Below are positions 33,091 to 62,259 of a stretch of 64,000 nt of DNA, one piece after another. The first letter of the stretch is position 1; every line of letters starts with the position of its first letter. The stretch lies in contig OZ242311.1 in assembly GCA_965207885.1 (NCBI GenBank), forward strand, positions 2,560,001 through 2,624,000. The letters run 5' to 3'. The position numbers and the translations under genes were made by a program. Source of the DNA: Candidatus Latescibacterota bacterium (GTDB lineage Bacteria; Latescibacterota; UBA2968). A model generated the notes under the pieces. It was not told the DNA's origin. It ran no database searches and was given only the letters and a program-made list of their open reading frames with translations.

Positions 33091-33105
33091 ACACTGTTGT
33101 TATGC
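33091..33105 (-). repeat. attC left-arm remnant (R'' GCATAAC aacagtg)
   Basis: Just downstream of the S66 gene stop; similar to the arm at 37840-37855. Confidence 0.55.
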
Positions 33106-33117
33106 GTTGTGGGCTTC

Positions 33118-34185
33118 TCAATCAGGTTCGACTGCATTCTCCAAAATGGTAAACTTGCGCCAATCAGAGTCGATTTCTGCTTGAATTCCATACGGAAGAA
33201 CGAACATCGGATCTGTATGCCCGAAATCCATCTGCGTAATTATGGGGAGCGAAGTCAATCCTTCCTCGTCAGCGACTATCTGAAGTATGGCGTCGTCATA
33301 AGCATGAAACGAATCAGGCGACAACTCGTGGCCACCTGGTCTTCCAAAGAGAATCCCACTCAATGATGGAAGAATATCCATCGCAGCAAGAGACCGGAAA
33401 AACCTGGTTACCGTACTTGGCGGCGGTGTTTCTTCAGACGTTTCGATAAAGAGTATCGCGCCTTCCCACACTTCTTTGTTAGGCCAAACGTCTGTACTTC
33501 TTATCCAGTCGAGAACTTCGAGGCAACCACCTATGAGGTGTCCTTCCGTTTGCCCTTCTCCCTGGAGATACTGCCAACCCGCAGAGCCTTGAAGGATCCT
33601 CTTTCTTTTTTGATTCGCAGGATTTGCCCAGTCAAGACGTTCGACGGTCCAGCCATCTCGATTCTCCGGTATTTCACCAATATTTCCAGAATCAAATAAG
33701 GTCCGTCTAACGGAGTTCACCATGTAGGGAAACAACCCACCGTTCTCGGCAAATCCTGCCATAATTGCTGGACCATAAAAGGAGACAATGCCCGCCTTTA
33801 GGCACGCAAAGTGGGAAACGGTCGTATCGGAATATCCCACGAAGGGCTTCGGATTCTTCCTGATAAGATCAAGGTCTAAGTGACGAAGAATTCTAATCGA
33901 GTCATCGCCGCCAATAGTCGATATAATTCCTTTGATTTCTGAGTTTGAAAAGGCTTCCATCAAGTCATCCGCACGCGCTTTTGGATTCTCAGAGAGCCAT
34001 TTTGGCTCTTTGAGTGTATGAGGCATCTCGATCACGATCAGGCCAAATGCTTCTTCCAGTTGCTTTTTTCCAGCTTCATATCGATGTGGAATTAGCCCCG
34101 GTCCACCCCATGACAGAGATACAGTGGCTACCTTATCTCCCTCTTGAAGCTTTGGTGGTTTAGTAAGCGATAGTTTCATTATCAA
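33118..34185 (-). CDS. S66 peptidase (LD-carboxypeptidase/MccF-like)
   Basis: IGGDDS, GYSD.T, GHLIGGCLE, LFIETSEE, DFGHTDP. Confidence 0.9.
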   Translation of the reverse strand: MIMKLSLTKPPKLQEGDKVATVSLSWGGPGLIPHRYEAGKKQLEEAFGLIVIEMPHTLKEPKWLSENPKARADDLMEAFSNSEIKGIISTIGGDDSIRILRHLDLDLIRKNPKPFVGYSDTTVSHFACLKAGIVSFYGPAIMAGFAENGGLFPYMVNSVRRTLFDSGNIGEIPENRDGWTVERLDWANPANQKRKRILQGSAGWQYLQGEGQTEGHLIGGCLEVLDWIRSTDVWPNKEVWEGAILFIETSEETPPPSTVTRFFRSLAAMDILPSLSGILFGRPGGHELSPDSFHAYDDAILQIVADEEGLTSLPIITQMDFGHTDPMFVLPYGIQAEIDSDWRKFTILENAVEPD

Positions 34186-34212
34186 GTCTGTTTAGTTTTT
34201 GTGGGCGATTGC

Positions 34213-34249
34213 CGCTAACGTCTTCCGGTTTGTGAACCCGCTGTTAACG
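34213..34249 (-). repeat. Collapsed attC-like site
   Basis: CGTTAAC-agc-gggttcacaaaccggaagac-GTTAGCG; right arm homologous to 37764-37791. Confidence 0.7.
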
Positions 34250-34361
34250 GCGGTCATCCTCAAATGACGTTTGAAGCCTTTGAAAGGCCTTAAGAGTTGA
34301 CGGATCAGTGATTATTTCCCTTGCGGCTTCAATAGTCAACCATTTGGCAGCCTGCTTGCTG

Positions 34362-35183
34362 TCACTTATCCCCATTCTTGGTAGCAACGAAGATCATCTC
34401 TTTTTCGTGTTCAGAATTCAGGGTCTCGTCTGTCCAATCGCCTTTGACATCGACATCTTGAAAGCCTGCCAATTCCAGCATCCACATCAGTTCATTTCGA
34501 TGGTACCAGTGCGTCTGTCCGGTGTGAATCTCCTCCTTTATGAGACGGTCGCCTTCGTATAGTTCGTATCGCCGTTCTCGGACAGCATATTGCGCCACCG
34601 TATCTTCAAAAATCTTGTGGTGATAAACCAGTAGGCGCTTTCCGTCTTCAAGCTCCTTGTTGGCGATCTGTTTCCACTCGCCAGGCCAGGCGTGAATCTC
34701 TTTGGGGCCCCAGTAATAAAAACTATGGGCTGGGGCAACATTAAAGGCGAGAATTCCACCAGGCTCCAAATGAGCGTGGCATCGGCGGAGCGTTTCCAAT
34801 GCCGCTCGCCGTCCCATTACACACTGGAAACCGCCGCACGGGATATAGATGGCATTAAAACGATCGGGGAGATCCAACTGCTGCATCTGCTGCTCGTAGA
34901 GCACGGGGGCCAGCCCCATCGCGTTCGCATGCTGGCGACATACAGATAGCATATCGCCCGAAATGTCCACCCCCTGTACATCAAATCCTTCTTGCAAAAA
35001 GGTGAGTAGTAACCGTCCCGCTCCGCATCCCAGTTCCAGGGCCTTACTTCCGGCTTTTTCAAGGATGCCTTTGTAGAATGACTTGTCTATGCGGGGGTCT
35101 GACGTCGATATCGTAGCCCAATGAAGTGCGGAGAGTCCAGTATATAGATCTCGTTCATCGAATTTCATGAAAATATCCTCCAA
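34362..35183 (-). CDS. Class I SAM-dependent methyltransferase (paralog A)
   Basis: ALELGCGAGR, LEPGG; close paralog of 46210-47013. Confidence 0.9.
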   Translation of the reverse strand: MEDIFMKFDERDLYTGLSALHWATISTSDPRIDKSFYKGILEKAGSKALELGCGAGRLLLTFLQEGFDVQGVDISGDMLSVCRQHANAMGLAPVLYEQQMQQLDLPDRFNAIYIPCGGFQCVMGRRAALETLRRCHAHLEPGGILAFNVAPAHSFYYWGPKEIHAWPGEWKQIANKELEDGKRLLVYHHKIFEDTVAQYAVRERRYELYEGDRLIKEEIHTGQTHWYHRNELMWMLELAGFQDVDVKGDWTDETLNSEHEKEMIFVATKNGDK

Positions 35184-35255
35184 AATGTTTAAAGGTTAAT
35201 GTTTTAGCCTATAAAAACACTTTAAAGGATGCATTTTGGAGGGGGCAAAGAGGTG

Positions 35256-35849
35256 TCAGCTTTTGCCGAACTTCCATTCTGAATCCAAAATCGCATAGAC
35301 CAATCGATTCACCCACTTGTCAAACCGAATACCTCCCTCGCGATATTCCGCTTCTTTTGTCATTCCACATTTGATCATGATTTTTTCGGATGCGATATTT
35401 CCCTTGATACAGGAGGCAGAAATTTTGTGCATTCCAAGTTGCGAAAAGCCAAAATCAATGACCAACTTCACGGCTTCGGTCATATATCCTTTGCCCCAAT
35501 AGGATCTGTTCATGAAATACCCAACATTTCCATCCCCACCACCATACTTTTTGCTTATCCATCGAAGGTCAACGTGACCAACCACTTGATGGGATGATTT
35601 GAGCACAATAGGCCAATAATAGCCTTGTCGATCTTCTTCAAATCGATGGCGCATAAAATCTGCCAATTGAATAAATGTCTCATCCCTTGTTTTTGTCGGT
35701 CCCCAACTCAGAAATTTCATGACTTCAGAATCGCTCATCCATTGGTGAACCATATCCAGATCACTTGAAGTATATTCTCTAAGAAAGATTCGATTTCCAG
35801 TCAGGTCAGGCATCAATGGTATGCTTTCATCGAGATAAAGCGGAGACAT
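35256..35849 (-). CDS. RimJ/RimL-family GNAT acetyltransferase
   Basis: YWGKGYMTEA, NIASEKIMIKCGM. Confidence 0.88.
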   Translation of the reverse strand: MSPLYLDESIPLMPDLTGNRIFLREYTSSDLDMVHQWMSDSEVMKFLSWGPTKTRDETFIQLADFMRHRFEEDRQGYYWPIVLKSSHQVVGHVDLRWISKKYGGGDGNVGYFMNRSYWGKGYMTEAVKLVIDFGFSQLGMHKISASCIKGNIASEKIMIKCGMTKEAEYREGGIRFDKWVNRLVYAILDSEWKFGKS

Positions 35850-35875
35850 TCAGTATCCGGGTTTTGTTTTCCGCT

Positions 35876-37090
35876 TTACAAAAGATTCCCTTGTGCGCGG
35901 GAATTGCGGCCTATCACGGTGATCGGCTCGGCCATTCCTATACAGACATTGCCACTCACGAGGTTCCAGTCACTGTGGCCACTCTCGACGATGCCTCGCG
36001 TCTGGCACGGTGTGTCGCCCCCAACAGTCGGCGATTTGTCAACATCATCGGCGCAGCGGTTGCCCTGGACAAGAAATCTTTTGGCATTGTGCAGGCGCAG
36101 GGCGGGATAAGCGCCAGGCTTCTTCCAGGAATTGCTACGGAGGATGTTCCCGACGATCACATGTTCCACGCCATCGCTTGCGTTAATGCCCCACTTGCCA
36201 TTTTCTGAGCACACATTGTTGCTGATGATGTTGTGGTGATCCTCCCCGTGCCCCACGCCGCCGATGCCACTGTGGTCGTTGCCTGTGAAGACACTGTCGC
36301 TACATATAGAGTCTCGCACATGGCCGCAGAAGTACAGACCGTCTCCGCCGTTTCCAATGGCGATGTTGTGTGACCAGATGCTGCGTTCTATACCAGTGCC
36401 GGGGTGGTATCCGTGTCCGCGACAAAAGCGAACCTGACAGTGGGTGACCTGCACATCCGAGCCGCCCTGCACACTGATGCCGTCACTCGGCCAGTCGATG
36501 ACCGCTACATTCTGGATGCGTACACCTCTACAGTGGACAGTGTGTACAGCGCTGTAAGTGAAGTCTTGCCACCAGCACCCTTTGGGATCTCTCGATCCAC
36601 GTAGCGTCAAATCGCGTAAGCTCACATCGTCTCTTCTGACAGCGGTAATACCTGGAAAGAGGCTGACGATCTGGGATCCCTCTTTTACCCTCAGGCCCCT
36701 GTTCAGTGGCTCGCTCAAGCGAACGAGGTCGCCCTTCACCGACTTCACCAGCGCGTGGGTCCCATCCCACCATTGGCGAGGACGGTCGGTCAACCCGACG
36801 CCATCGTCTGCTACAAAAGGCACTCGTCCGCGCAAGTAGATGTTGCGGGAACCTTTGCGGGCATCTCGAATCAGGAATAGTGCCCTGGGTGCAGCTATCG
36901 TCAGTTCAGTCGCTGATCCATCGCCGATGAGGCTTATGCCACTTCGGAGGACAATTGACTGACGTAGCCGCCATTTGCCTGCCGGAATCCGAACGCTCCC
37001 ACCTCGCTCGCCAAGGGCGTCAATCGCCTCCTGAATCCCCGAGGTAGCCGAATCCTGATCGAGAGATGCCGTGATTATTTTGCTCATCAT
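35876..37090 (-). CDS. Right-handed parallel beta-helix (pectate lyase-like) protein
   Basis: IQEAID...GGSVRIPAGKW, repeated NN/GN beta-helix turns. Confidence 0.8.
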   Translation of the reverse strand: MMSKIITASLDQDSATSGIQEAIDALGERGGSVRIPAGKWRLRQSIVLRSGISLIGDGSATELTIAAPRALFLIRDARKGSRNIYLRGRVPFVADDGVGLTDRPRQWWDGTHALVKSVKGDLVRLSEPLNRGLRVKEGSQIVSLFPGITAVRRDDVSLRDLTLRGSRDPKGCWWQDFTYSAVHTVHCRGVRIQNVAVIDWPSDGISVQGGSDVQVTHCQVRFCRGHGYHPGTGIERSIWSHNIAIGNGGDGLYFCGHVRDSICSDSVFTGNDHSGIGGVGHGEDHHNIISNNVCSENGKWGINASDGVEHVIVGNILRSNSWKKPGAYPALRLHNAKRFLVQGNRCADDVDKSPTVGGDTPCQTRGIVESGHSDWNLVSGNVCIGMAEPITVIGRNSRAQGNLL

Positions 37091-37221
37091 AGGCTTTCAA
37101 TACCTTTTCATCAGGGCCTGTATCCCATAATCGTACCCATCTATTGGTTTATGTGAATGGGGTGTAGTTCTGGGTTACTTTTGCGCCCTTATGTTTTTTA
37201 TCACACAAAAAAAACCTGCGC

Positions 37222-37241
37222 TCATAACCGTGCTGTTATAC
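37222..37241 (-). repeat. Collapsed attC (20 bp)
   Basis: GTATAAC-agcacg-GTTATGA downstream of the GNAT stop. Confidence 0.7.
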
Positions 37242-37259
37242 GCTGGCAGAAATTCAACT

Positions 37260-37733
37260 CTACTGGTTTAGCCCATCTATCAATTCCATTCGGATGAAGT
37301 CGAACTCGCCTCCATTTGTCCTATTCATATAGTGTTCAACTTCCCTAAAACCAACTCGTTTATATACCTTGATTGCTCGTTTATTGAAAGCCGCAACATG
37401 AAGTTGGATGGTTTTCGGTGAGAATCGAGATTGTGCAAAAACCAAACCTGCGCGAACAAAATCTGCCCCTAAACCTTTACCCGTTAGATCTGGATGAAGT
37501 CCTAAACCAAAAATCACTACGCCTTCTTTGTTCTGGAACGCAAAGAACCCCACTAATTCGCCTGCGCCATCTCGAACAGCGAACATGGACTCGCCCCGAA
37601 GAGCAGGATTAAGAAGCTCTGCTAAATCTTCGGGATCCGCTTCAGGATCATAAAAGGCGTATTCATCCTCATAATGCCATGAAGCAATTTTCTCAGCATT
37701 TGATTGATCCAATGGTTCAATGTAGAATTGCAT
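37260..37733 (-). CDS. GNAT acetyltransferase (cassette-like)
   Basis: GLGLHPDLTGKGLG, FNKRAIKVYKRVGF; start MQFYI at 37733. Confidence 0.88.
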   Translation of the reverse strand: MQFYIEPLDQSNAEKIASWHYEDEYAFYDPEADPEDLAELLNPALRGESMFAVRDGAGELVGFFAFQNKEGVVIFGLGLHPDLTGKGLGADFVRAGLVFAQSRFSPKTIQLHVAAFNKRAIKVYKRVGFREVEHYMNRTNGGEFDFIRMELIDGLNQ

Positions 37734-37763
37734 CAGAACAGCTCCATAGATTTTCCTGCTGGC

Positions 37764-37855
37764 GTATAACGTTATGCCGGTTTGCGAACCCACAAAGCGG
37801 GTTGTCGTAGGCCAAGGCGCCACCAGCACCGCAGCGGAACACCGTGTTGTTAGCC
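37764..37855 (-). repeat. attC-like site (92 bp), the most complete in the window
   Basis: R'' GGCTAAC, L'' cggtGtt pairing with L' aaaccg with an extra G, R' GTTATAC. Confidence 0.75.
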
Positions 37856-37876
37856 GAAGTCGATCTATTTTCAAAG

Positions 37877-38626
37877 TTACATTTTTCGGACTATGAAGTA
37901 TGCACGTCTGCCCAGCTCATAGGGCTCGCAATCCAGTGACGAAAAAGTATCGCACACCTCGAAACCCACCTCGGAAAAGAGGAATGTCAACTCTCGAAAC
38001 CCATAGACCCGCATAGAGCTTGTCTTCGTCTCGGAAATTCCGTTCGCAACCAGAGTCCATTCAGTATCAATCCGGCTCTCCGTGTGTCTGTATTTTATGT
38101 CCTCTATGACAGTTGTTTCACCTACTTTGCTCCAACTGCGAAGCTGGAGTTTTGGAAGTATTGTTTCAGCGACGTTGGGAATATCCAGAGCAAACCTCGA
38201 ACCAGTCTTGAGCGTTCGATGCACTGCCTTGAGGAATCGCCTATTTCCGTCGTCGTCGAAGTATCCGAAACTTCCCCAAAAACAGAATGCTGCATCAAAT
38301 GTCTCAATCCAGGACAGATCCCTCATATCCATCTCAACAAGCTCAAGACCAGGATTCGCTCCTTGTGAAGCGGATTGCGCCTCTTGAAGAAGGACGGTTG
38401 TAATGTCAACGCCGGTTACTTTATAGCCTCTCTCAGCCAGCGGAATCGCCAATCTGCCATTGCCACACGGCACATCGAGAACCCGACATCCTGGCTTCAA
38501 ATTGAGCACGCGCACCAGAAAGTTTACCTCTTCTGAGGTACGCTCTGCTCGCATGTTTCTTTGAACGTCGAGCCAGTTTCCAGAAAAAAAGGTGGTCCAC
38601 CATTCATTACTCACGTTTCGCCTCAC
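37877..38626 (-). CDS. Class I SAM-dependent methyltransferase
   Basis: VLDVPCGNGR, DMRDL, SFGYF. Confidence 0.9.
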   Translation of the reverse strand: MRRNVSNEWWTTFFSGNWLDVQRNMRAERTSEEVNFLVRVLNLKPGCRVLDVPCGNGRLAIPLAERGYKVTGVDITTVLLQEAQSASQGANPGLELVEMDMRDLSWIETFDAAFCFWGSFGYFDDDGNRRFLKAVHRTLKTGSRFALDIPNVAETILPKLQLRSWSKVGETTVIEDIKYRHTESRIDTEWTLVANGISETKTSSMRVYGFRELTFLFSEVGFEVCDTFSSLDCEPYELGRRAYFIVRKM

Positions 38627-39677
38627 TGCACAAGGTTACGTCTTGTCGGCAACATTCAATCCTTTCAATCGTATCATTCGCGATATGCATCCACCTTTCA
38701 TTAGAATGCTCGAATGCCTTTAAAGCATTGAGAACTTCATCATCTGGGTAAATAACATCTGTGAAGCGAAACAGGGCTTGCGGCAGACTTGATGTATCAT
38801 TTAACTTTTTGAGCCAGAAATCTCTGTAAATCAATAAATAGTGGTTCTCAAGTTCCAATACTTTTTCACATATACTTCGCAATTTTTGCTTTGCATGTGC
38901 TTCTTCAGGAATGCAATACTCCCATTGCGTTCTACAGGTTTCCCATATATCGGTCAAAAAATCTGCCCAAGCATCATTGATGTGGTTCCTATAAAGTTGA
39001 AATGCTTCACTTTTACCAAGCACATATGAATGTGTTTCGATGGCGACAATAGGGATAATAATTTGATACAAGAGTGCAATTAGGTCTTTGGTACCTTTTG
39101 GATACTGTGCGCCATTGAGTGAATAGACTTCCCTCTGATCATATCCGAAGAACTCACCTTCTGGATCGGGGAAGTCCAGTGGATAGATAAGAACCTCCCG
39201 GTCGCGAATATCTTTCTGATTGATTACATTCATACAATTTCGGATATATTCGTCAACCGAAGGAATCGGAAATGTATCTCTCACTTCTTCCCCATATACC
39301 AAACGACCTATGAGTTTGAAAATACCATTATAGCCTACTGGTTGCCGATCATCTTTAGGAGAAATCCCCAGTTCGATGGGCGTCATCAAATCACATAACC
39401 AGCCAATTTGACGCGCTTTGCTTCTTTCTTTTTTGCTGTATCCTCCTTTAAACAGAGGATGTATATCAAGATCGCTGGTCGAGATAGCCGTGCCATTTGC
39501 ATAGCTGCCCACGAGATAATAACTGCAGATTCTATCGGGAAATATTCGCTCGAAGATACCGATGACTCCCTGTATTATCTGATCGACTTGGGAGTATCCA
39601 GTTGAATTCGTCAGCGAAACACTATTTAGCGTATTCTCTAATAGATTTTCATCTTCTTCTGATAATGGCATTTTCAC
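38607..39677 (-). CDS. Nucleotidyltransferase-domain protein
   Basis: YLVGSYANG.....SDLD pol-beta-like motif. Confidence 0.7.
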   Translation of the reverse strand: MKMPLSEEDENLLENTLNSVSLTNSTGYSQVDQIIQGVIGIFERIFPDRICSYYLVGSYANGTAISTSDLDIHPLFKGGYSKKERSKARQIGWLCDLMTPIELGISPKDDRQPVGYNGIFKLIGRLVYGEEVRDTFPIPSVDEYIRNCMNVINQKDIRDREVLIYPLDFPDPEGEFFGYDQREVYSLNGAQYPKGTKDLIALLYQIIIPIVAIETHSYVLGKSEAFQLYRNHINDAWADFLTDIWETCRTQWEYCIPEEAHAKQKLRSICEKVLELENHYLLIYRDFWLKKLNDTSSLPQALFRFTDVIYPDDEVLNALKAFEHSNERWMHIANDTIERIECCRQDVTLCSEAKRE

Positions 39678-39709
39678 CTCTAATAGTAAGATCGAAAGGA
39701 CTGACTTGC

Positions 39710-40984
39710 CTATTCTGTCACAACCGCTTCAGGTGAGACGCGAACTGATGACAATATCAAGTAGGTAAAAGCCACCATCATTATAGCAGCTGAAATCAAC
39801 AGTGTTGCCTCCCAGCCAAAAGTTTCACCAAGGTAGCCACCTGACAATGCCGCAATCGGAATTATTCCGAATACGACAAGACGCCTGGTGGCATTGATTC
39901 TACCTAACAGTCTATCTGGAGTCACTGCTTGCCTCAGGCTAATCTGGCTTATGCTGAAGAGGGTCAAGGCCAGGCTAAAGACTGCCTGGATAGCAATGAC
40001 GGCTGGGAGCTTCATCCAACCGAAGTGGCCTGCGAAAGGAAGCACGCCCATCGCAATCCCCTCAAGTAGCAACGCAATAATCATCAACCAGCCTGCACCC
40101 ATCCGCTTTGCAAGTGGAACAGCGGATAGGGCCCCGATAATCGAGGCACCTCCTGCAACAGATCCGATGATTCCCAGCCAGATCGGAGTAATGTCCAGGG
40201 TGCGAACAAGAAAAAGTGTCCAAACTGTATGTTGTACAGCACCTGCTGCACTTGCAAGAGCAGTCCCGATAGTCATGGCTCTCAGAATAGGGTGACTGAA
40301 TAGGGTCGATATTCCCTCCTTAATGGCAGCTATCACCCTTTGGTCCATCCTGGTCCTGATATTATCAGATTCATCAAATCGGATCCTCAATAGGAATAGA
40401 CCAGATAAGAAGTACGAGACTGAATCCACAAGTATTGCCAACGGTGCACCGAGAATATCGACAAGGTATCCAGCTGCTCCGGGTCCTGCTACATTCGTTG
40501 TCGAAGTGCTTAGCTGAAGTCGGGCATTCCCTTCGACCAGATCTTCCCGTTTCACGATAGAAGGCAAAAACGATGTTGAGGCAAGGACGTACATCATCGC
40601 GAGTGTACCACTTGTAAAAGCCACAATATATAGCAACTCTATGGATAGCCAGCCAACCAAAGCTGCTGCGGGGACCAGACTTATGACCAATCCTTGTCCG
40701 AACGCACTCGCGACCAGTATGGGCTTTCGTTTGGCCCGATCAATCCAGACGCCAGCCAGGAGAGCGAAGAGCAGTACTGGAAGATGCGTTGCTGCGTTGA
40801 GGAATCCCATTTCCTTCGCGCCAACCTGAAGCGTTATTACTGCAACAAGGGGAAGCGCAAGGTTGGTGACAGAAGAGCCAAGATCCGAAATAGTGACGCC
40901 GCTCCAGAGCTTGGCAAAGTCAGAATTGGAGCGCGCCAGCCGGAAGAGGCCACCCTCAGGTGCTATACCCATTTGCTTACTCAT
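39710..40984 (-). CDS. MFS transporter
   Basis: 12 TM pattern, FAKLW...IS.LG, GVWIDRAKRK, RQAVTPDRLLGR. Confidence 0.9.
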   Translation of the reverse strand: MSKQMGIAPEGGLFRLARSNSDFAKLWSGVTISDLGSSVTNLALPLVAVITLQVGAKEMGFLNAATHLPVLLFALLAGVWIDRAKRKPILVASAFGQGLVISLVPAAALVGWLSIELLYIVAFTSGTLAMMYVLASTSFLPSIVKREDLVEGNARLQLSTSTTNVAGPGAAGYLVDILGAPLAILVDSVSYFLSGLFLLRIRFDESDNIRTRMDQRVIAAIKEGISTLFSHPILRAMTIGTALASAAGAVQHTVWTLFLVRTLDITPIWLGIIGSVAGGASIIGALSAVPLAKRMGAGWLMIIALLLEGIAMGVLPFAGHFGWMKLPAVIAIQAVFSLALTLFSISQISLRQAVTPDRLLGRINATRRLVVFGIIPIAALSGGYLGETFGWEATLLISAAIMMVAFTYLILSSVRVSPEAVVTE

Positions 40985-40991
40985 TTCGTAT

Positions 40992-41004
40992 GGTCGTGTT
41001 ATGT
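40992..41004 (-). repeat. attC left-arm remnant (ACATAAC acgacc)
   Basis: Same arm as at 45281-45293 and 48587-48599. Confidence 0.6.
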
Positions 41005-41017
41005 GTCGTGCGATCCT

Positions 41018-41833
41018 CTATCCGTCGCCGAATGTGCCAATTGCGATTTCGTAGTCATGCCTGTCGGCGAACCCCACCTTTTCTGCCACTCTGATCGATG
41101 GTATGTTGCTTGCCCAACAGTCCCAGTGGGGATTCATCCCTGAAGCGAGGGCGTACCTGACAAACTCTCCAGCCACTGCAGTAGCAATGCCCCTTCTCTC
41201 GTATGCTTCAATCGTCTCGATACCTATGCCGCACTTGCCTTCGCTCACGTATTCTGCTGTACACCAACAGACGATTGACGTCCCATCGAGCATCGTGAAG
41301 CCGAATCCCTGGTCGAGAAATATTTCAAGGGATGGCCAGCCTCCCAGGATCTCATCTTTGACCGAGCCAATGTGTGCAAAGTCACTTTGGAGCAATTGGG
41401 CGTTGATCTGCCTGAGCTTCAGCGGAGGCGATGGGACGTCAATTCTCGATGAGCTGTCCCGAACAGAGCAGTAAATCCGTCTTTCCACGTTCGTGTGCGA
41501 GAGCGGGCCGAAAATCTTCTCCAGCCGGAGGCTCCATGCATCTGGTGAATAGTAGAGCTTGAAGAACCCGAGTTCTCTTGACTGACCCTCTAACTGGATT
41601 TCAGTCGAGAAGATCTCTCGCAGCCCATTGTTGGTTTCAACGCCTTCAAAGTCTCCTACGAGGTAGATACACCGGCCTTCCCAGGCTAATACGGTCCTCG
41701 GGGTAGCTGGATCGTCTGCCCAGACTCTGGCAGGGGTTTTGCCATCGATAATGCTATCTACAACGAGGCGGAGGTTGGGCGTGTCAAAATGAGGCCGAAT
41801 TGACGAGGTCTCTTCACTGGAAAGTCGGTGCAT
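41018..41833 (-). CDS. GNAT acetyltransferase
   Basis: IGIETIEAYERRGIA, HWDC..SN.PS.RVAEKVGF. Confidence 0.87.
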   Translation of the reverse strand: MHRLSSEETSSIRPHFDTPNLRLVVDSIIDGKTPARVWADDPATPRTVLAWEGRCIYLVGDFEGVETNNGLREIFSTEIQLEGQSRELGFFKLYYSPDAWSLRLEKIFGPLSHTNVERRIYCSVRDSSSRIDVPSPPLKLRQINAQLLQSDFAHIGSVKDEILGGWPSLEIFLDQGFGFTMLDGTSIVCWCTAEYVSEGKCGIGIETIEAYERRGIATAVAGEFVRYALASGMNPHWDCWASNIPSIRVAEKVGFADRHDYEIAIGTFGDG

Positions 41834-41856
41834 AGTGTCTCACTCTGTATGCTTTT

Positions 41857-41911: not shown

Positions 41912-41956
41912 TTTTCTTGAGATTGATCCAAAAGTGCATCCCTCTTGGGTATAAAG

Positions 41957-53230: not shown

Positions 53231-53237
53231 GAAATAT

Positions 53238-54431: not shown

Positions 54432-54439
54432 TTGCCTAA

Positions 54440-54466
54440 TAGACCGAAAAAGCTGCCAAAGGTTCA
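54440..54466 (-). promoter_or_regulatory. ECF-type (sigmaE-like) promoter upstream of the sigma gene
   Basis: TGAACC-N16-GTCTA, 8 nt before ATG. Confidence 0.6.
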
Positions 54467-54530
54467 CAGAATTTTGAGCTTAAAAAAATAAACACAAAAA
54501 GCAACTTTTATGACTCGGCTATGATCGTCG

Positions 54531-54576
54531 GATCAACGCCTGGGGGATATGCCAATGCCGCACCGTGCTGTCAGCC
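54531..54576 (-). repeat. Collapsed/degenerate attC-like site
   Basis: GGCTGAC agcacggtg...GTTGATC; left arm matches 37840-37855 and 37227-37241. Confidence 0.6.
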
Positions 54577-54606
54577 GCTGGTGCCTGTCGATCTCCCCAA
54601 TCATTT

Positions 54607-55743
54607 CTATGTCGTGTCGATCCACCAGTGATACACGTTCGTCAAGTGCTGTTCATACGCATGCGACGCCTGTAGCAGCAGCCGATTCCGCTTGTGTGGA
54701 TTTAGCGATCCGACCACGATGCTGTTCGAATATGCTGCGATTCCCTCCTCGCGCATCCTCAAGTAGATGCCGTCATCCCAAGCAAGGCCATCTCGTGAAG
54801 CATACAGAACAAAGTGACCTTTTTCCTCTTTCTTACCCTGCAAGAATGCACTGCGTCCGTGCATGAAATAACTGCCGTTTAGCACGGCCATCTGAGGATT
54901 TCGGATTCTCTTCTGGAAGTGCGCGATCTTCGGGTCGGACCAGGTGTGGCCGCAGTCGTCGCTAACCACATAGTCCATCGTGTGCTCAGCCTTGCTGTTG
55001 TATATGTACACAATGATGCTTCCGTTATCGCGTATCCCCATGGTTCCGTACGATTTCCCGATGGTGTCGAAGGGAAGCTCGCTGCGCTTCACGAACGTCC
55101 GGCCACCGTCTCGGCTCACGTGCAACTCGTACACATGCTCGGGCTTGTTGCCCAGGAAATTGATCTCGTTGTCGTTCTTGAAGTGCAACACGAGTATCTC
55201 TCTGTTGTGATACTTTGCATCGTAGAGCCTGCCCCGACTGTCGCACAGTGCAGACGGCTCACGCCATGTGTGCCCTCCATCCGGACTGCTGATGTATGTC
55301 GGCACCTGAAATTGCCTCCAAATGACATTGGTCGTGATATCACATACAAGGAAAAAGAGGACGATTTCACCCTTGTCCGTCCGAACTGCCTTCTCGGCGA
55401 AGGCGGACAGTTTCTTGCTGGTCTTCCCGCTCTGCCCGGTGTCGAACAGGTTCTTCGAATAGGCAACCACGTTCCGGTCGCTCCATGTTTCGCCGCTGTC
55501 TTCCGAACGCTTGTATTCCATCCAGCCCCTGGCCGAGTGGCCCCTGTTAGGCTTCTCCGGGTTGTGGCGTTCGGCGGAGCAGTTCGGATAGAAGGCGAGG
55601 ATCTTCCCGTCTTCATACTCCACCAGTGCGTGCCCGAGATTTCCACCTCTTCTTGCCGGGGCGTGATCGACGAAGAGAATCCCATCATTCGGTGGGTTTT
55701 TTGGGGTGATCTCATAATCTGCTTTGTTTGGATGCGCGTCCAT
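54607..55743 (-). CDS. BNR/Asp-box sialidase-like protein
   Basis: Multiple Asp boxes (SEDSGETW, SPDGGHTW, SRDGGRTF, SDDCGHTW). Confidence 0.85.
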   Translation of the reverse strand: MDAHPNKADYEITPKNPPNDGILFVDHAPARRGGNLGHALVEYEDGKILAFYPNCSAERHNPEKPNRGHSARGWMEYKRSEDSGETWSDRNVVAYSKNLFDTGQSGKTSKKLSAFAEKAVRTDKGEIVLFFLVCDITTNVIWRQFQVPTYISSPDGGHTWREPSALCDSRGRLYDAKYHNREILVLHFKNDNEINFLGNKPEHVYELHVSRDGGRTFVKRSELPFDTIGKSYGTMGIRDNGSIIVYIYNSKAEHTMDYVVSDDCGHTWSDPKIAHFQKRIRNPQMAVLNGSYFMHGRSAFLQGKKEEKGHFVLYASRDGLAWDDGIYLRMREEGIAAYSNSIVVGSLNPHKRNRLLLQASHAYEQHLTNVYHWWIDTT

Positions 55744-55763
55744 AAGTGTCTTCCTGGATGAAT

Positions 55764-57212
55764 TTAAATGCCTTTGTAGATATTGGAGGAGTACATTTCG
55801 AAGCCTTCGGGGCCGGGGTAGCCGTCGAAGAGGTTGCATTCGGGTACATTGCCGGGCGCGCCATTTTTGAGCCAGTTGATGAAGGTGGGGTCGGCATTGC
55901 GGTGTTTGAGTTCGGCGAGGCCCGACGCGTGAAGGTCTTGAACGCGATCGGGGTTTTCAGAAGCGATATTGTCCAGAGAGCCGTAGGGGGTGAGGATGCT
56001 GTCTTCGGGGTTGGGGTGCCATTCGAGATAGCCTTCCTGGTCGAAGACGGTAAAGTACCCGCGTTGAAGATGTCGCATCGCTTTGCCGCGCGCCACGCCT
56101 GATAGGGCGATTTCGCGGTTGCCCAGGCTGTTTTCACGCGCAGCTTTGAGGATGTCATAACTTTCGATATTATCGGGTATAGGCGCGCCTGATAGGTTGG
56201 CGATGGTGGCGAAGAAATCTTGTGGTTGAAAGATGGCAGAACTGCGACCTGTGTCGCCTTCGGGGGTTTTGATGAAAAGTGGGATGTGGATTTCTTGTTC
56301 GCGAACAGGTGCGCCTTTGCCGAATCTGCCGCGTTCACCGACGTTGGTGCCGTGATCGCCTGCGACGAGGATGGCGGTGTTTTTATCCAGGCCTGTGGCT
56401 TCAAGGGCTTCGAGAAAGCGGCCAAAGCAGTGGTCCATCCAGGTGACTTTGGCTGCGTAACTGGCTTTGATGCGTGCCCTGGCTGCGTCGGGTAAGTTGG
56501 GATTGCTGCGGGCTTGCGTTCCTCCTTTAAATATGCGAGGATCGAGCCGACCGTCATAGCCGGGCGTTTTGTCGTATTTGAGCATGAATTCGGGGGGTAC
56601 ATCCCAGGGTTCGTGAGGGTCGAAACAGTCGGTCCAGAGGAAGAAATTTCCCCGGTTTTTATTGTCGCGGAGAAACTCGGCGGCGGTGTTGAAGAGTCTG
56701 GCGCAGTTCCAGTCGTCTAAGTTTTCGCGACCTCTGTTGGTGCGGGCATATTGAATGGTTGGTATTGGGAGTTCGTCTTCGAGGATGTCAAAGAGCGGAT
56801 CTTTTGCCCAGTTGCTGGGCCATTTGGCTTCGTCATTTATCCAGGCGCGGTCAACTTCGGCACCGCGGATGAAGGTCCAGGTGTGAAAGGGATAATCGAA
56901 GGCGTGCCCCCCGTTGACGAGGTGGGGGGTGTCGTGCAGGAGTTGCGTCGCGTAGCCTGCTTCGCCGAGGATATACGGCAGTGCGTTGGTGTTGAAGGGC
57001 AGTGGTTTCCAGGCGTGAAAGGGACTGCCGTATTTGCCGGTCATGACGTCGGTGCGATAGGGGATGGTGGGAAAGCTCGCTGCGAAGGCACGGTCGAAAC
57101 ACCAGGATTGTGAGGCTAAGCGATCGAGGTTGGGGGTTTCGATCCAGTCATTGCCGTTGGCACCGATATAGTCGTAGCGCATGGTGTCGATGATTAAGAG
57201 AATGATGTTCAT
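55764..57212 (-). CDS. Sulfatase-like hydrolase (Thr at the nucleophile position)
   Basis: NIILLIIDT.R, TPNLDRLA, FPTIPYRTDVMTG, FDPHEPW, GDHG. Confidence 0.82.
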   Translation of the reverse strand: MNIILLIIDTMRYDYIGANGNDWIETPNLDRLASQSWCFDRAFAASFPTIPYRTDVMTGKYGSPFHAWKPLPFNTNALPYILGEAGYATQLLHDTPHLVNGGHAFDYPFHTWTFIRGAEVDRAWINDEAKWPSNWAKDPLFDILEDELPIPTIQYARTNRGRENLDDWNCARLFNTAAEFLRDNKNRGNFFLWTDCFDPHEPWDVPPEFMLKYDKTPGYDGRLDPRIFKGGTQARSNPNLPDAARARIKASYAAKVTWMDHCFGRFLEALEATGLDKNTAILVAGDHGTNVGERGRFGKGAPVREQEIHIPLFIKTPEGDTGRSSAIFQPQDFFATIANLSGAPIPDNIESYDILKAARENSLGNREIALSGVARGKAMRHLQRGYFTVFDQEGYLEWHPNPEDSILTPYGSLDNIASENPDRVQDLHASGLAELKHRNADPTFINWLKNGAPGNVPECNLFDGYPGPEGFEMYSSNIYKGI

Positions 57213-57395
57213 TGTAAATCTCCGAAGACGGATGGACGAATTAAGACCCTTGAAATCGCAATAAGCTATAGACCCATTTGTCCCGACACAATAGGAATAC
57301 ATACTGATCGGGCTGCCATTTCTTCATTGCTTTCTCTCGCGGATTTGTTCATATAAACAAGCCGTTATTATCTTTTTAAAACAGGAGGTTATCAG

Positions 57396-58376
57396 ATGTC
57401 CAAGCCGCTTTATCAACTGGACTGGCAGCGTTGGGAGCAGCCGGTTCTGTCGGGGATGACCACAAACCAGGACTGGTGCCGGGTGACGTTGTACAGCCCG
57501 ACTGTTCTCCGTATGGGCGATACGTACAAAATGTGGTACCTGGGCAACCGAACGGCCACGCGTACGAGCGATATGGATCTGGGGTATGCCGAGTCCCCGG
57601 ATGGGCTGACCTGGACGCCACATCCGGACAATCCGATCCTCAGCGGCGGGTTGCCGTGGGGCCGTGCGTGGCAAACGCCGCACGTGATTTTCGACAGCGA
57701 TGAGAATCTTTACAAGATGTGGTTCGTGATGGCTGACAGCCGTCCGGGTGAGGGGGGTAGGGCGATCGTTCTGGGACAGAAGCTGGGGTATGCGACCAGT
57801 TTCGACGGTCTGGCATGGGAGGCCTACTCCAAGTCGATCTATCCGAGCGGGCGGGGGCCGTGCGTGTTGAAGGAGGGACCAAATGCCTACCGCATGTGGA
57901 TGTGTTCATCCCCCAGTCCGGACGGAGAATTTGGAGATCTGGTCGGGAATATCTACCACTTCGAATCGACCGACGGCATCGCCTGGACGCGGGATCCCGA
58001 ACCGATGATCCGGGCCACGGAAACGCACCGGAGCGTGGTCTATCCGAGCGTTTTGCGGGATGGGCAGGGATATACGATGTGGTACGGATGCCATGTGGAG
58101 GGAGGAATCTTTGAGATTTTCTGTTCAACGTCGGAGGACGGACTGAATTGGACGCACCACCTGAAGGAGTCTTCGTTTCCCGCAACACGCGATCCGAACG
58201 ATTTCGACGGACGATACACATCTACGCCATGCGTACTGGACGACGGTGACCGCTACCTGATGTACTATTCCGCCCGAGACTGGGGAAACCTCTACCGGGC
58301 TGGGGACGGGACGATTAAGACCGACGGCGCGGGTATTTATCGCCACATCGGAGTGGCCGTATGTCCGAAGGAATAA
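57396..58376 (+). CDS. Five-bladed beta-propeller glycoside hydrolase-like protein (GH43/GH130-like)
   Basis: Repeated P.V...YxMWY and GYAxS.DGxxW units. Confidence 0.7.
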   Translation: MSKPLYQLDWQRWEQPVLSGMTTNQDWCRVTLYSPTVLRMGDTYKMWYLGNRTATRTSDMDLGYAESPDGLTWTPHPDNPILSGGLPWGRAWQTPHVIFDSDENLYKMWFVMADSRPGEGGRAIVLGQKLGYATSFDGLAWEAYSKSIYPSGRGPCVLKEGPNAYRMWMCSSPSPDGEFGDLVGNIYHFESTDGIAWTRDPEPMIRATETHRSVVYPSVLRDGQGYTMWYGCHVEGGIFEIFCSTSEDGLNWTHHLKESSFPATRDPNDFDGRYTSTPCVLDDGDRYLMYYSARDWGNLYRAGDGTIKTDGAGIYRHIGVAVCPKE

Positions 58377-59371
58377 ACCGATTTATTCGAAGATAGCCAA
58401 TCTAACTACCCCACCAAAACGAGTCAAGTCCACTCAGACTTTAACGTTGCTCCGACGACTTTATTCGCTTCACGACGGGAGCTCTCTTCCTTGGAGGATA
58501 ATCTGGGTGCAACCCGGCCATTCGCGGCGTCTGGGGACGGATCGGTCCCCAGTTGATCGCATAGGGGTGATCCTTACAGAGTTGCTCGATCTTTTCCCAG
58601 GCGGCGAGTACGTTCGCCTCTTCCCTTTTGTCTCCGTTCCAATACCGGGTCATTCCAGCGCGAATGTCGATCATGTGGCGGGTGTGATCCAGGCCTATGC
58701 GGACGAAATCGATCCGCGCCCCGAATCGCTCCGGTTCGTCCGTAACCTTGCGTGACGCCTGGTCGAGTAGCGCGTAAGCGCGGTCGAAGAACGCCTTGTC
58801 ATAGACATCCGGGTATGCTCGTTCACTTGCCCAAAAGATGCTGCGCGTCTCCTCCATCAGATTCCAATAGGCCTCGAGTTCCGTGGCTGCTGGGCCGAAT
58901 GCACGTTGATAGTAATTCTGTAGAATCGCCTGCCCATCCTGCGACGGATCCCACAAGAGATGCGCCATGAGATAGTATTGTGGCCCGTGCGTTGCCCAGT
59001 GTTCCCATACCATATCGACAAAGATGCCCATCGCTTTTTCACCGATCAGTTTGAAGTCCTCAATTGCTTGTATGAGAGCCACATCCGGCTGCCCCTGAGG
59101 CCAGCCTGCGGGGTCACCGACATTGGGTCGCCACATCATGTGCTTCGCGACCTTCGACCACGCGATGTATTGCTCTTTGTGTGTGGAACCCCTGGTCGAA
59201 CCACGGTCGATCAGGCCGTCTCGGTTGAGGAAATTCGCCACGCTTGCCACAATGACATTCTCTGCCGGAACTTCGCGAATCGGAGCAGGCCGGGAATGCC
59301 CGTAGGCCAGCATCATGACATAGTAGTCTCGATCCGGATAGCGCTGCTTGAGTAGCCGCGCACATGTGTTA

Positions 59372-60308
59372 GGTAGTGTCTGAAAAGTCGTAAAGTATGT
59401 ATTTTAGTTGCAGCATACGCCCTAAACCAAGGAGTATGATATGCAACGGAGATATGAACTGCGCGACGAGGCTTGGCATCTGATCCAAGACCTGTTCCCA
59501 CCGCCGAAGAAGATGGGTCGTCCCCGTCGGGATGATCGTACATTATTCAACGGGATCTTCTGGATATTGTGTTCAGGTGCAGCTTGGCGCGACCTGCCAG
59601 AACGATATGGTCCTTGGCAGACAGCCTTTGACCGATTCTGCAAATGGAAACAGGATGGCACCTTTGATCGCATTGTAGAAAAGCTACATCTCAAATTGGG
59701 TGAAGATGGTCTTTTAGATTATGCGACCTGGATGATGGATGCAACCCATATTCGAGCCACACAAGCCGCGGCAGGAGCGAAAAAAAAAGGGCAAAAAGGG
59801 TGAAGAAGAGCCCCCAGATCACGCTTTAGGACGCTCTCGTGGCGGTTTGACCACGAAAATCCATCTTCTTTGCGATGCAGTCGGGCATCCTTTAGCAGTG
59901 GATCTTCTCCCTGGTAACCAGTCAGAATCCACACAGGCTGAAAGGCTACTGTCAAAGGTATGCATACCCACCAAACGAGGGCGTCCAAGAAACCGACCCA
60001 AGTATCTGGTAGCTGATAAATCTTATGATGTCTCACGCATCAGAGTCTATCTACGCAAACGGGGTATCAAGGCTGCTATCCCAAACAAGGCGATTCCCAA
60101 AGGCAGAAAACGGCGTAAGAGAGGACCACGGCCTAAGTGTGATAAAAGATTATATGCCAAACGCAATATCGTGGAGCGTCTCTTTGGTTGGCTTAAACAC
60201 TGCCGACGGATTGTGACCCGATTTGAAAAAAAGGCGACTCATTTTCTCACTATGGTCAAGCTGGCCTGTATCAGACAACTCTTCAAAGCTTACTTTTCAG
60301 ACACTACC
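59372..60308 (+). mobile_element. IS5-family (IS427-like) element, 937 bp
   Basis: 17-bp perfect TIRs ggtagtgtctgaaaagt; TA duplication at 59370-59371 and 60309-60310. Confidence 0.93.
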
Positions 60309-60311
60309 TAG
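59441..60311 (+). CDS. IS5 transposase, orfA/orfB joined by a probable -1 frameshift
   Basis: WRDLPERYGPWQT, DATHIRA, A9-GGG slippery run near 59780, GRSRGGLTTKIH, ADKSYD, RNIVERLF. Confidence 0.9.
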
Positions 60312-61391
60312 CAAACCGGACGTGTCGATCAGATAGTGCGGGCCGTTCCTGCCTGGTCCCTTTCCAGTGAAACGAACGGAGTTCGCCATCCGGATGGTCC
60401 CAGGCGCAACAGGGCTCACAAACACAATGCCCGCTAGCCCAGCCGTCGTTAGGCGACGCATTGAAGACGCGTTGATTTGGGTTTTGTTTTAGTGCTTTCT
60501 CGACATCCGCGAGCCATTGCTGCGGTACCTCCGGATTCGATTGGCAGAGCTTGGCGTATTTGGGTTGTGGAAATCCGCTCCGCGTTCCGTCAGGCTGAAG
60601 GGCGAAGTATTCGGGGTGTGTTTCATGAAATCGCTCCCACCAGTCGCGGAATCCATGCCCCCCTTCCATTTCGAGGGAACCCAACTGCAGCCGTTGACGG
60701 CGTGTCCACTTCTGGGATCGACCGTATGATCCCCTGGGCGCCAGCCTGGAGTAACTGAACAGTCCGGCCCGGAAACGAAGACTGGGATGGTAGCGATAGC
60801 TGAAGGTCGCGAAGCGGATGGATTCCTGCGGGATGATATCCTCGCCGAGATCGCCAGGCCAGAGCCAACGCACGCCGAGTCGATCGTGCAGAAACGTATA
60901 GATCGCATTTACAGTCCCATACTCTTGCTGGATTCCCTCGATCCGTTTCCCGTTGATCTGTGCAATCAGGTGGTTGGGATCCCAACGGTCTCGCCCCGCG
61001 ATTACGAGGTGCTTTTCGCTCGCCGCGATGACGATTTCCTCGGGGTGTTGGAAGTCGAAGTCGATATTTGGAAACAGCGAATCAAGCGCCGGTTGGTAAC
61101 CCACCCAGATGGCCCGATCTGGGAATTGGCGGGGTGGACCGTCGATCCATTCCGGTCGAGTGCCACAGGTTTTCTCGATGTAATCGGCAAGATCAATCGC
61201 GGCTTTGCGCGTGAATGGTGGTGCATCTGGAAAGAGGATCAGCGGCGCCGGTTTGATCCCGGCTTTTTTGTCCACGAGGGTGAACTCGGCGGTATCGGCT
61301 GCTGAAATCGAGGTTAGCACGATGGAAACGGTGCGGAGCAGCTTGATTTTTTTTAACATGTTTTATTCCATTCATATACACTTAATATTTG

Positions 61392-61475
61392 GTTAGGTTG
61401 AGAATGACTTGCCCTCAGTCTCTTTAAAAGGACTGCTTCAACCTCAACAAATCGGTTCAGTAGCCCGTATTATGC
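61392..61475 (-). repeat. Scar of a deleted methyltransferase cassette with attC remnants
   Basis: 61425-61441 = 53183-53199; 61442-61461 matches 53211-53230 (19/20); flanked by GCATAAT (61469-61475) and ACCTAAC (61392-61398). Confidence 0.75.
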
Positions 61476-61481
61476 ACTGTC

Positions 61482-62183
61482 TCAATCACCGACTATCTTA
61501 TTCTTTCTAAGAATCGGAAATTCGGCACCTTTCATTCCGGTGTCTGTCAAATATGTAAGGTTGCAATGATGATACGCACAGATATAGCTTCTACGTAATT
61601 TATCAGATGAATTGGAGCCGCTTCTATGTAGAACATGCGAATGAAAAATAGCGATTTCACCTGCGTGCATTTCGATGGGGACCTGATTTTTATCATCCAC
61701 ATCTTGCGCGAACCGACCTGCGTAGAATGTTTCCGTTTCTCTCAAGAATACATGATCAAGTCGTCCCCATTTGTGTGAGCCTGGTATCACCCATAGACAT
61801 CCATTGCGGATAGTAACAACATCAAGGGCAACCCAACACGTGATGTAATTTTCAGGCTCTGTCAGACCGTACTGAGCATCTTGATGCCAATGAAATTCTT
61901 TGCCTTGAAACGGAGGTTTATGAGCTATCAAATTCCAATGAAGATCAGCATTGGGCCCAATCAGTTTCTTACAAGCTTCGACAAAGAGAGGTTGTTTTAC
62001 GAACTCTGCAAATAGATCACTCTCCAAATGAGGATTACGTTGAAACCATTTGGGGTTGTCTGTGTTATATTTTTCACATTCCGACGTCAACTTATTGAGC
62101 CACTCACCTGTGACTTTTTGTCCAGCAACGAAAAACCCTTTCTCATCAAAGTCACGAAGATTACGGCTGGTTATGATATCCAT
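61482..62183 (-). CDS. Phytanoyl-CoA dioxygenase family (PhyH) protein
   Basis: HWHQD, NGCLWVIPGSH, HRSGSN.SDKLRR. Confidence 0.9.
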   Translation of the reverse strand: MDIITSRNLRDFDEKGFFVAGQKVTGEWLNKLTSECEKYNTDNPKWFQRNPHLESDLFAEFVKQPLFVEACKKLIGPNADLHWNLIAHKPPFQGKEFHWHQDAQYGLTEPENYITCWVALDVVTIRNGCLWVIPGSHKWGRLDHVFLRETETFYAGRFAQDVDDKNQVPIEMHAGEIAIFHSHVLHRSGSNSSDKLRRSYICAYHHCNLTYLTDTGMKGAEFPILRKNKIVGD

Positions 62184-62197
62184 TTTGGCCTCGCCTC

Positions 62198-62259
62198 CCT
62201 CAACCTGGTTTATCTATGAAATAGTCTGTGCAATCCGAATCGTATATACTATGTTAGGC
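62198..62259 (-). repeat. attC-like remnant
   Basis: Perfect R'' GCCTAAC 16 nt after the MFS stop; GTTGAGG at 62198-62204. Confidence 0.5.

Follow-up and report, generated by a model that had tools for sequence, protein, structure and literature searches.

The window analysed here is a stretch of 64,000 nt from a Candidatus Latescibacterota genome (contig OZ242311.1, positions 2,560,001 to 2,624,000), and from position 33,030 onwards it holds an array of accessory genes, all in one direction, with short inverse boxes of attC type in several of the spacers. These motifs, listed in a preliminary description as 16 collapsed attC sites, are probably (at roughly 80%) what decay has left of the recombination sites in a gene-cassette array of integron type. 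The best of them belong to a family of ~90-nt sites with full-length counterparts at orthologous positions in relatives, where such sites form cassette arrays beside a tyrosine recombinase gene; the window genome has no such gene, and the loss of its sites is graded. What the locus shows is real: a system of a known kind in an unusual state. In what follows, G000 is the window genome, other G-numbers are genomes compared with it and L-numbers are fetched loci; the sites of the window lie on the minus strand, which is the coding strand of the array.

The ~90-nt site family in related genomes

A scan of the genome collection with a 15-nt arm shared by two of the window sites gave mostly chance matches in unrelated phyla, and among the matches listed (at least 80 loci) only two, L064 and L118, were informative. 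In L064, from G169, both arms of window site 48561-48599 recur as the ends of a ~80-nt element. L118 is from G168 (identical to G107), a genome of the same class as G000 and of another family. Mapping of the window onto 40 kb of G168 revealed six copies of window element 37764-37855 within 16 kb, and a further one is found in G169, all being 75-84% identical. Together with the window copy these seven form an alignment (A6) of eight copies, which align well.

In the predicted fold of the family the TAAC and GTTA boxes pair with each other, next to a 9-bp stem, and two hairpins form inside; 91.8% of cells are paired, compared with 29-42% in slid controls. The TAAC/GTTA end boxes pair in 7-8 of the eight aligned members and are inverse core boxes as in an attC-type site, while the 9-bp stem beside the R box (85.9% of cells paired) has an optional bulged G and no compensatory changes. 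The recurring arm families pointed out in the preliminary description are real, being the 5′ arm (TAAC-AGCACGG) and the 3′ arm (GGGTTCGCAAACCGG..AAC-GTTA) of two subfamilies (A and B) of this element.

A covariance model, R3, was built from the A6 family and identified copies as follows:

G168: 69 copies (E<=0.01)
G169: 20 copies (E<=0.01)
G040, G101, G102, G105, G106: 8-35 copies each (E<=1e-6)
Genus of the window, per genome: 0-5 copies (E<=0.001)
G000: 3 copies (E<=0.01)

The copies outside the training set, found in G168, G106, G105, G040, G101, G102, G086 and G089, score 26-98 bits. There are also two full-length ~90-nt elements elsewhere in G000, at C1:2,905,600-2,905,688 and 2,944,390-2,944,479 (L185, L186; 60.8 and 55 bits).

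With regard to their setting, 10 of 11 elements in the G168 array begin between -5 and +57 nt from the stop codon of a co-oriented ORF of 112-271 aa, and the following ORF starts 5-132 nt past the element. This is the classical cassette layout of an ORF with its site. Arrays of R3 elements reach up to ~50 kb, with one co-oriented element per ORF.

A divergent recombinase gene at the array start

The arrays of the relatives adjoin a gene for a tyrosine recombinase. In all six genomes possessing a close ortholog of it (at least 79% identity, G107 itself counted), an R3 array starts ~0.7-6.5 kb upstream of the gene, on the opposite strand. These R3 arrays beside the divergent recombinase gene are:

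G168: C1:1,208,941-1,219,147
G106: C1:2,011,281-2,062,184
G105: C1:1,754,216-1,759,636
G102: C1:4,482,489-4,489,287
G040: C1:1,718,960-1,748,138
G101: C2:1,318,108-1,341,065

No canonical IntI was detected in those six genomes at E<=1e-40. The best family match of the recombinase is "integron integrase", with 230.7 bits against a cut-off of 265 for TIGR02249, in two stretches between which model positions 180-234 are skipped. Several copies of the array-adjoining recombinase contain internal stop codons. G169 has two fragments of such a gene in its array region, one with an internal stop.

Within the genus of the window, a homolog is present in G076 and G086 (56-57% identity), that of G086 adjoining three ~90-nt elements, and 19 of the 21 genomes, G000 included, are without it. 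A 314-aa homolog (48% identity) occurs in G042 as three identical-scoring copies (C1:2,493,564-2,495,721, 2,158,606-2,160,406 and 5,718,976-5,719,791), two of which immediately follow a canonical intI or a fragment of intI, and G041 has six similar copies; such multiplicity suggests a repeated mobile unit. Among the papers listed in literature searches, none matched Latescibacterota integrons or integron-like systems with a recombinase lacking the additional domain.

Intact and collapsed sites of the window

The features of the array that bear on these sites are given below, R1 and R2 being models of canonical attC sites that are described in the next section.

33030..64000, minus strand: accessory-gene (cassette-like) array in one direction (ORFs, Pfam, congener mosaic)
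37764..37855, minus strand: intact 92-nt attC-like element, subfamily A (R3 93.1 bits, as a training member; alignment A6)
34213..34249, minus strand: collapsed subfamily-A site, 37 nt (R3 by the arms only, 12.2 bits, E 1.4; 4 nt in place of 58 model positions)
37222..37241, minus strand: collapsed site, 20 nt, GTATAACAGCACGG joined to TTATGA (R1 and R2 by the R box only, 10.8 and 9.9 bits, E 2.4-4.9)
45259..45293, minus strand: collapsed subfamily-B site, 35 nt (R3 by the arms only, E 6.6, 5 nt in place of 58 positions; R1 E 8.2)
48561..48599, minus strand: collapsed subfamily-B site, 39 nt, second box mutated to CTTATAC (R3 by the arms only, E 8.6, 0 nt in place of 52 positions)
40985..41017, minus strand: 33-nt spacer holding ACATAAC and 6 nt of the subfamily-B 5′ arm only (site 40992)
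41863..41911, minus strand: 49-nt remnant of the 3′ end of methyltransferase gene 46210-47013, then a GGCTAAC box, upstream of a GNAT gene (direct repeat D1, 96%)
54531..54576, minus strand: possible shortened site with subfamily-A 5′ arm GACAGCACGGTG (read from the sequence; no model hit at E<=10)

The intact element runs from GGCTAAC to GTTATAC and lies between the stop codon of a methyltransferase gene (37877) and the true start of a GNAT gene. Orthologous copies of it, full or near-full, are found in G077 and G086, again downstream of the methyltransferase at 37877.

The four collapsed sites (20, 35, 37 and 39 nt compared with 92 nt for the intact one) possess the TAAC...GTTA boxes and parts of the arms, with the interior absent, and the models align to their arms only. 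The minimum length of an attC site is ~55 nt, which none of the four reaches. Alignment places the deletion endpoints inside both arms, for example at AACAGC/GGGTTC and ACGG/TTAT (the slash marking the point of joining), with an ambiguity of 1-2 nt. Site 34213-34249 retains TAAC plus AGC and GGGTTCACAAACCGGAAGAC plus GTTAG, some 55 interior nt being gone. The 5′ arm of 37222-37241, TAACAGCACGG, is that of the A6 consensus, and this mini-site is also kept in G077 and G089. In the case of 45259-45293, the first box (CTATAAC) contains the stop codon of a sulfotransferase gene, and its 15-nt arm is identical to a copy at 48583-48597 (repeat D6) and shares 13 of 15 positions with a third site; an 11-mer of this arm has only 5 occurrences in 6.2 Mb.

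The collapsed sites are backed independently of their scores, because full-length elements occupy orthologous positions in relatives. The 37-nt form that G000 and G086 carry upstream of the LD-carboxypeptidase gene corresponds in G089 to an element of 80 nt (R3 36.3 bits, E 6.9e-6). Similarly, a full element of 83 nt (L182:920-1002; R3 36.4 bits, E 5.9e-6) follows the G168 ortholog of GNAT gene 41018-41833, which is 90.6% identical over 864 nt; downstream of this gene, a 13-nt arm or another junction is seen in G000 and eight congeners.

The remaining sites are less convincing. The evidence for 40992, 41857 and 46192, which have a 5′ box only, is weaker than for the four collapsed sites; 41857 (GGCTAAC) belongs to the 49-nt duplicate of the methyltransferase 3′ end, and 46192 is a diverged copy. 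The preliminary description had its sequences right, all being present on the minus strand where it placed them, and its view that they are shortened from longer attC-type sites holds for some: one of the 16 is in fact intact, four are collapsed, three have a 5′ box only, one is a possible site and seven found no support. That R boxes were kept throughout applies to the four alone, the others having one box or nothing.

Canonical attC sites and integrases in the phylum

Integron integrases over the TIGR02249 cut-off are present in 17 of 168 genomes of the phylum, with none in G000 or its 20 congeners, and the array therefore lacks the integrase of a complete integron. A tblastn search (E<0.1) found no intI fragment within 100 kb on either side or in the arrays of the congeners. 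The attC sites beside the integrases of the phylum, as in the IntI-linked integrons of G157, G097, G098, G042 and G039, have a first box of the ATAACA type and a last box GTTAT, with R and L boxes covarying. Two covariance models were built from such sites, namely R1 (six canonical attC sites) and R2 (18 sites, three genera). Scans for AAC...GTT made by hand with DNA folding were too noisy alone and served only to choose training sites beside IntI genes, and MAFFT alignments of mixed-length attCs (A1, A2) were structurally incoherent and were not used for models.

The models recover untrained attCs in other genera, and whole-genome controls gave 18 (G157), 17 (G097) and 6 (G042) sites. In the window plus 30 kb, searched without filters, their only hits had E 2.4-10, nothing being significant, and at 37222-37241 and 45259-45293 the end boxes align while the interior is skipped. 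R2 had no hit at E<=1 over all of G000, in line with the expectation of the preliminary description that standard tools would probably miss most of the sites. Among the 21 genomes of the genus, R2 had a single hit at this threshold, a 56-nt relic in the homologous array of G072. The relic directly follows a methyltransferase ORF, with TAA inside GCATAAC, its last box is mutated, and at its centre it hardly differs from bona fide attCs of G157 and G098.

Some other candidates were rejected. Hits in L047, L052, L045 and L051 (E 0.02-1) fall within the conserved flank and resemble coding DNA. A broken intI in G062, on a contig of 3.6 kb, has a housekeeping gene next to it; the G000 ortholog of that gene is at 6.04 Mb, unconnected to the array. 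Homologs of the array flank were not found near the integrons of G042, G097, G157, G098 and G039, and a second flank query had no match, the synteny comparison being uninformative. A 52-nt TAAC...GTTA hairpin (E 0.89) was also seen in a planctomycete record (L089).

Mosaic structure among the congeners

The array does not end with the window; it continues ~10 kb past it to ~74,086 (L053:10086), between conserved flanks at up to 33,050 and from 74,119. A DNA search of the 21 genomes of the genus was carried out, and the homologous regions of 11 congeners were fetched and mapped. Pieces of 33,000-50,100 recovered in this way are gene-sized modules at 87-99% identity across the 11 congeners. Both the set of modules and their order between the flanks differ in all 11 congeners, contrary to the idea that site collapse locks cassettes in place. 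The size of the array in the genus ranges from ~7 kb (G090) to 41 kb in G000. Across the arrays of 12 genomes, several genes, such as a NUDIX gene starting near 65,424, occur behind five different upstream neighbours.

The ends of the recurrent homology blocks fall close to genes, with 24 of 29 downstream ends and 16 of 23 upstream ends no more than 20 nt from an ORF end, against 8% of random positions. For the genes with five different upstream neighbours, homology begins exactly at the base preceding ATG, so that gene units are cut almost to the codon. Two types of junction can be discerned. The first consists of plain deletions with ~4 nt of microhomology, which leave stubs of the adjoining genes behind; in one example, CGCA links the 3′ flank of a methyltransferase gene to the last 28 nt of a GNAT gene, and the 49-nt methyltransferase remnant at 41863-41911 is another such stub. 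The second, a minority, lies exactly at a TAAC box with several different partners: 3-4 partners at TTCGGCTAA/C, two at ACACATAA/C and three at the TAAC after a HAD gene. A box is involved in about three of the ~22 multi-partner nodes, and the motif profile of the breakpoints has no sharp site-specific peak. The preliminary description had considered a joining of fragments inside attC arms; the junctions are mostly at ORF ends and 4-nt microhomologies.

In G077 and G079 the spacer after the carboxypeptidase gene is wholly lost and the stop codon abuts the following start. The methyltransferase gene that forms a cassette with the canonical-type attC relic in G072 (L041:17008-17825) is shortened in the same two genomes, where it runs into the start of the LD-carboxypeptidase gene as a fusion.

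Modules are often more alike between species (96-99%) than the flanks are (90-95%). In addition, GNAT gene 41018-41833 and its counterpart at L182:69-932 are 90.6% identical in DNA although the two genomes belong to different families of the class, which may point to a recent horizontal transfer of this cassette. Since modules often exceed the flanks in similarity and a cassette gene is this alike across families, horizontal exchange of modules may be continuing.

Same-strand spacers of the array have a median of 77 nt, with 15 of 37 under 55 nt. In L019, an IntI-linked array, the median is 154 nt and 3 of 18 spacers are shorter than 55 nt.

Interpretation and alternatives

From these data the following course can be proposed. 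A cassette of the related Latescibacterota consists of a co-oriented ORF and a ~90-nt site, with TAAC at or overlapping the stop codon and GTTA shortly before the next gene, and the sites would be substrates of the recombinase encoded beside the array. After loss of the recombinase in the genus of the window, the hairpin-forming sites may no longer have been maintained. Palindromic DNA is generally unstable, and the sites could have been removed by internal deletion, through replication slippage across the hairpins or other illegitimate deletion. The outcome would be the present array of closely packed genes, in which one site is whole (37764-37855), four have their outer arms and the others have one box or have vanished. 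The present differences between species would be due to deletions, duplications and homologous exchange, with selection for intact ORFs, rather than to site-specific recombination. The preliminary description spoke of systematic inactivation; a process of this kind under selection and neutral decay following recombinase loss would look alike here.

A number of observations weigh against decayed cassette sites. Taken individually, the collapsed sites are weak (E 1.4-8.6 in 188 kb searched), with noise of equal rank in coding DNA and on the opposite strand, and sites 33099, 47079, 48033-48072, 52403-52426, 53211, 61392-61475 and 62253 had no support in any test run. The one full-scoring copy of the window was itself among the training members of R3. 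The L stem of the family has mismatches without compensatory changes, covariation being limited to three pairs in the two inner hairpins, and R1 and R2 fail to recognise the family. In motif tests covering 41 array genes, RYYYAAC within 32 nt after the stop codon was found for 2 genes (shuffle mean 1.27) and GTTRRRY within 60 nt before the start for 1 gene (shuffle mean 1.97), both at background, so the predicted enrichment of canonical R boxes over shuffled spacers failed to appear; the sites mostly deviate from the full 7-nt consensus. A tblastn search with 50 window proteins found no close homologs in the IntI-linked arrays that were fetched, where likeness is at the family level only (24-34% identity). 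Most rearrangement breakpoints lie away from boxes, and the ~3-fold enrichment of AA/C at block ends comes from 19 of 403 contexts that are not independent. As for the recombinase, its alignment to bona fide IntI has gaps of 25 and 9 residues at the IntI-specific domain. An integron integrase is described in PMC7784347 as a tyrosine recombinase with an additional domain of ~30 aa; the present enzyme is not an integron integrase by definition because it is below the TIGR02249 cut-off and lacks the IntI-specific insertion.

The latter features, along with the absence of any score from canonical attC models and a fold dominated by two stable inner hairpins that are its sole covarying parts, would also suit a dispersed intergenic repeat (REP/MITE-like), a terminator or a regulatory RNA, in which case the short forms of the window would be ordinary hairpins like those of terminators, or decayed repeats, unrelated to cassette mobility. 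Such an identity is unlikely for elements that occur once per co-oriented ORF, start at its stop codon in arrays of up to ~50 kb, carry inverse TAAC/GTTA boxes at their ends and have a divergent recombinase gene at the array start in six of six genomes. The cassette gene that is 90.6% identical between families of the class also argues against a repeat of this kind, as does an Rfam scan of the window, in which no family was matched.

The multi-partner junctions exactly at a box, the enrichment of AA/C and the higher similarity of modules than of flanks could instead mean that the collapsed sites of 20-46 nt are functional mini-sites used by a recombinase in trans, which would explain the ongoing shuffling. 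This appears improbable, as the recombinase has no ortholog in 19 of the 21 genomes of the genus, IntI is absent from all of them, most recurrent block ends are within 20 nt of ORF ends, many junctions are plain 4-nt-microhomology deletions with gene-end remnants, and boxes take part in so few of the multi-partner nodes.

It is more improbable still that chance alone produced the motifs, in an ordinary island of accessory genes without integron-type ancestry, since the background-level counts of canonical motifs, the weak E-values of the collapsed sites and the number of TAAC-N(3-30)-GTTA pairs over the whole array (5, with 2.7 expected; 4 against 1.04 expected in 33-49 kb) are outweighed by the intact 92-nt family member inside the array, the full-length elements at two orthologous positions, the 15-nt arm present in two sites and at 13 of 15 positions in a third with an 11-mer so rare in the genome, the occurrence of TAACA after the stop codon in 8 of 41 array genes compared with 184 of 5,259 long ORFs elsewhere in the genome (3.5%; binomial P = 7.6e-5, for a motif that was picked post hoc yet is the consensus of bona fide attCs of the phylum), the R3 copies in relatives and the cassette layout of G168.

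Decayed cassette sites being the preferred explanation, a further proposal can be made tentatively, at slightly less than an even chance. The ~90-nt branched sites and an Xer-like recombinase without the IntI domain may constitute a second, undescribed integron-like system, with the window representing its state after recombinase loss, when sites implode and cassettes become fused into an operon-like block unseen by standard finders.

Comparison with known systems

CALINs are clusters of attC sites without an integron integrase, and integrase loss together with cassette degradation has been proposed as the origin of CALINs and of some single attCs (Cury et al., 2016, PMC4889954). At least two clustered attC sites without an integrase make a CALIN in the rule given in PMC12444791; in the window there is one intact site of the lineage family (counted with R3) and zero canonical ones (counted with R2). 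Like sedentary chromosomal integrons and CALINs, the array has one direction, small promoterless-looking accessory genes, inverse core boxes, sites that extend from a stop codon to just before the next gene, and no integrase nearby. It differs from CALINs in that its site family is unseen by the canonical attC models of the phylum and its sites are lost by internal deletion instead of being kept.

In Xanthomonas an ancestral platform lost its integrase in some lineages, in which the arrays were more stable afterwards (Colombi et al., 2025, PMC12444791, citing Gillings et al., 2005). The window resembles these integrons with inactivated intI in the acquisition of an ancestral platform followed by integrase loss. 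However, the attC sites of Xanthomonas are still detectable and were used in that work for counting cassettes, whereas those of the window are mostly destroyed, and the arrays here differ all the same in order and content between species.

The canonical attCs of the phylum share with the window family a first box of ATAACA type, often with the stop codon, a last box GTTAT, and a paired R box followed by an L stem (a predicted one in the window family) and a variable interior. They are single imperfect hairpins with extrahelical bases and adjoin integrases over the TIGR02249 cut-off. In the window family the unpaired spacer is longer, the interior is branched and the 3′ arm (TTCGCAAACCGG) is conserved, and the linked recombinase is without the IntI insertion.

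There is also a likeness to mosaic phage genomes, where junctions lie at gene boundaries. The homology blocks of the window likewise end within ~20 nt of ORF ends, as would be expected if illegitimate recombination struck at random and selection retained the products with intact genes; the setting here is a chromosomal array of single accessory genes and not a virus.

Little is known of cassette arrays after integrase loss, and this locus with its congeners provides a graded series from full-length sites through arm stubs to gene fusion, in which orthologous before-and-after pairs allow deletion endpoints to be mapped. Cassette-derived blocks may escape detection based on attC sites, and integron-derived DNA may be under-counted as a result. 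The parent sites are tied, in six genomes without a canonical IntI, to a recombinase lacking the domain thought to be needed for attC recombination; if that recombinase does act on these sites, integron-like systems would have to be defined more broadly.

Gene content, insertions and other features

After position 32,424 of the window, 29 of ~33 genes are on the minus strand, with 12 further genes of the array past its end. Their products, small and mutually unrelated, include by Pfam several GNAT acetyltransferases, several SAM methyltransferases, an LD-carboxypeptidase, one or more MFS transporters, an epimerase, APH/ANT-like proteins (among them an APH-like kinase), a sulfotransferase, a glyoxalase, a NUDIX protein, a PhyH dioxygenase and a LigT-like protein. 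At the far end of the array (74,086-74,286) a 200-nt spacer precedes a conserved divergent gene, leaving no room for an integrase gene there. Two insertions interrupt the array:

49208..51971, minus strand: 2.8-kb insertion with an IS1-family transposase gene (49215-50054; NCBIfam/Pfam IS1), unique to this genome
59373..60308, plus strand: insertion sequence with a DDE transposase (Pfam) that interrupts a DUF4838 gene; congeners run from 59372 into 60309 and have the gene intact

In the congeners, position 49207 runs straight into 51972 without the IS1-bearing insertion; G000 has three other identical copies of the transposase gene. This insertion also holds two ORFs without a family match (50510-51142 and 51755-52147).

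The spacer 52148-52437 has, by eye, a stretch like the T-arm and acceptor 3′ end of a tRNA, terminating in CCA, and ARAGORN called no tRNA over 30-64 kb, this spacer included. A perfect 21-nt tandem duplication is present at 41957-41998, in a divergent spacer upstream of an aldo/keto reductase gene.

Positions 1-20,000 of the window carry a second array, made up of GNAT, APH, ANT/GrpB, beta-lactamase-fold, NUDIX and phosphatase genes, with very short spacers and no visible sites. One of its genes (6253-7071) matches the AAC(3) aminoglycoside 3-N-acetyltransferase equivalog (344.7 bits against a cut-off of 270). Two histidine-phosphatase paralogs (13481-14218 and 17377-18148) are each followed by an identical 21-nt junction ending in the start codon of the next gene, which looks like a segmental duplication that took the gene boundary along.

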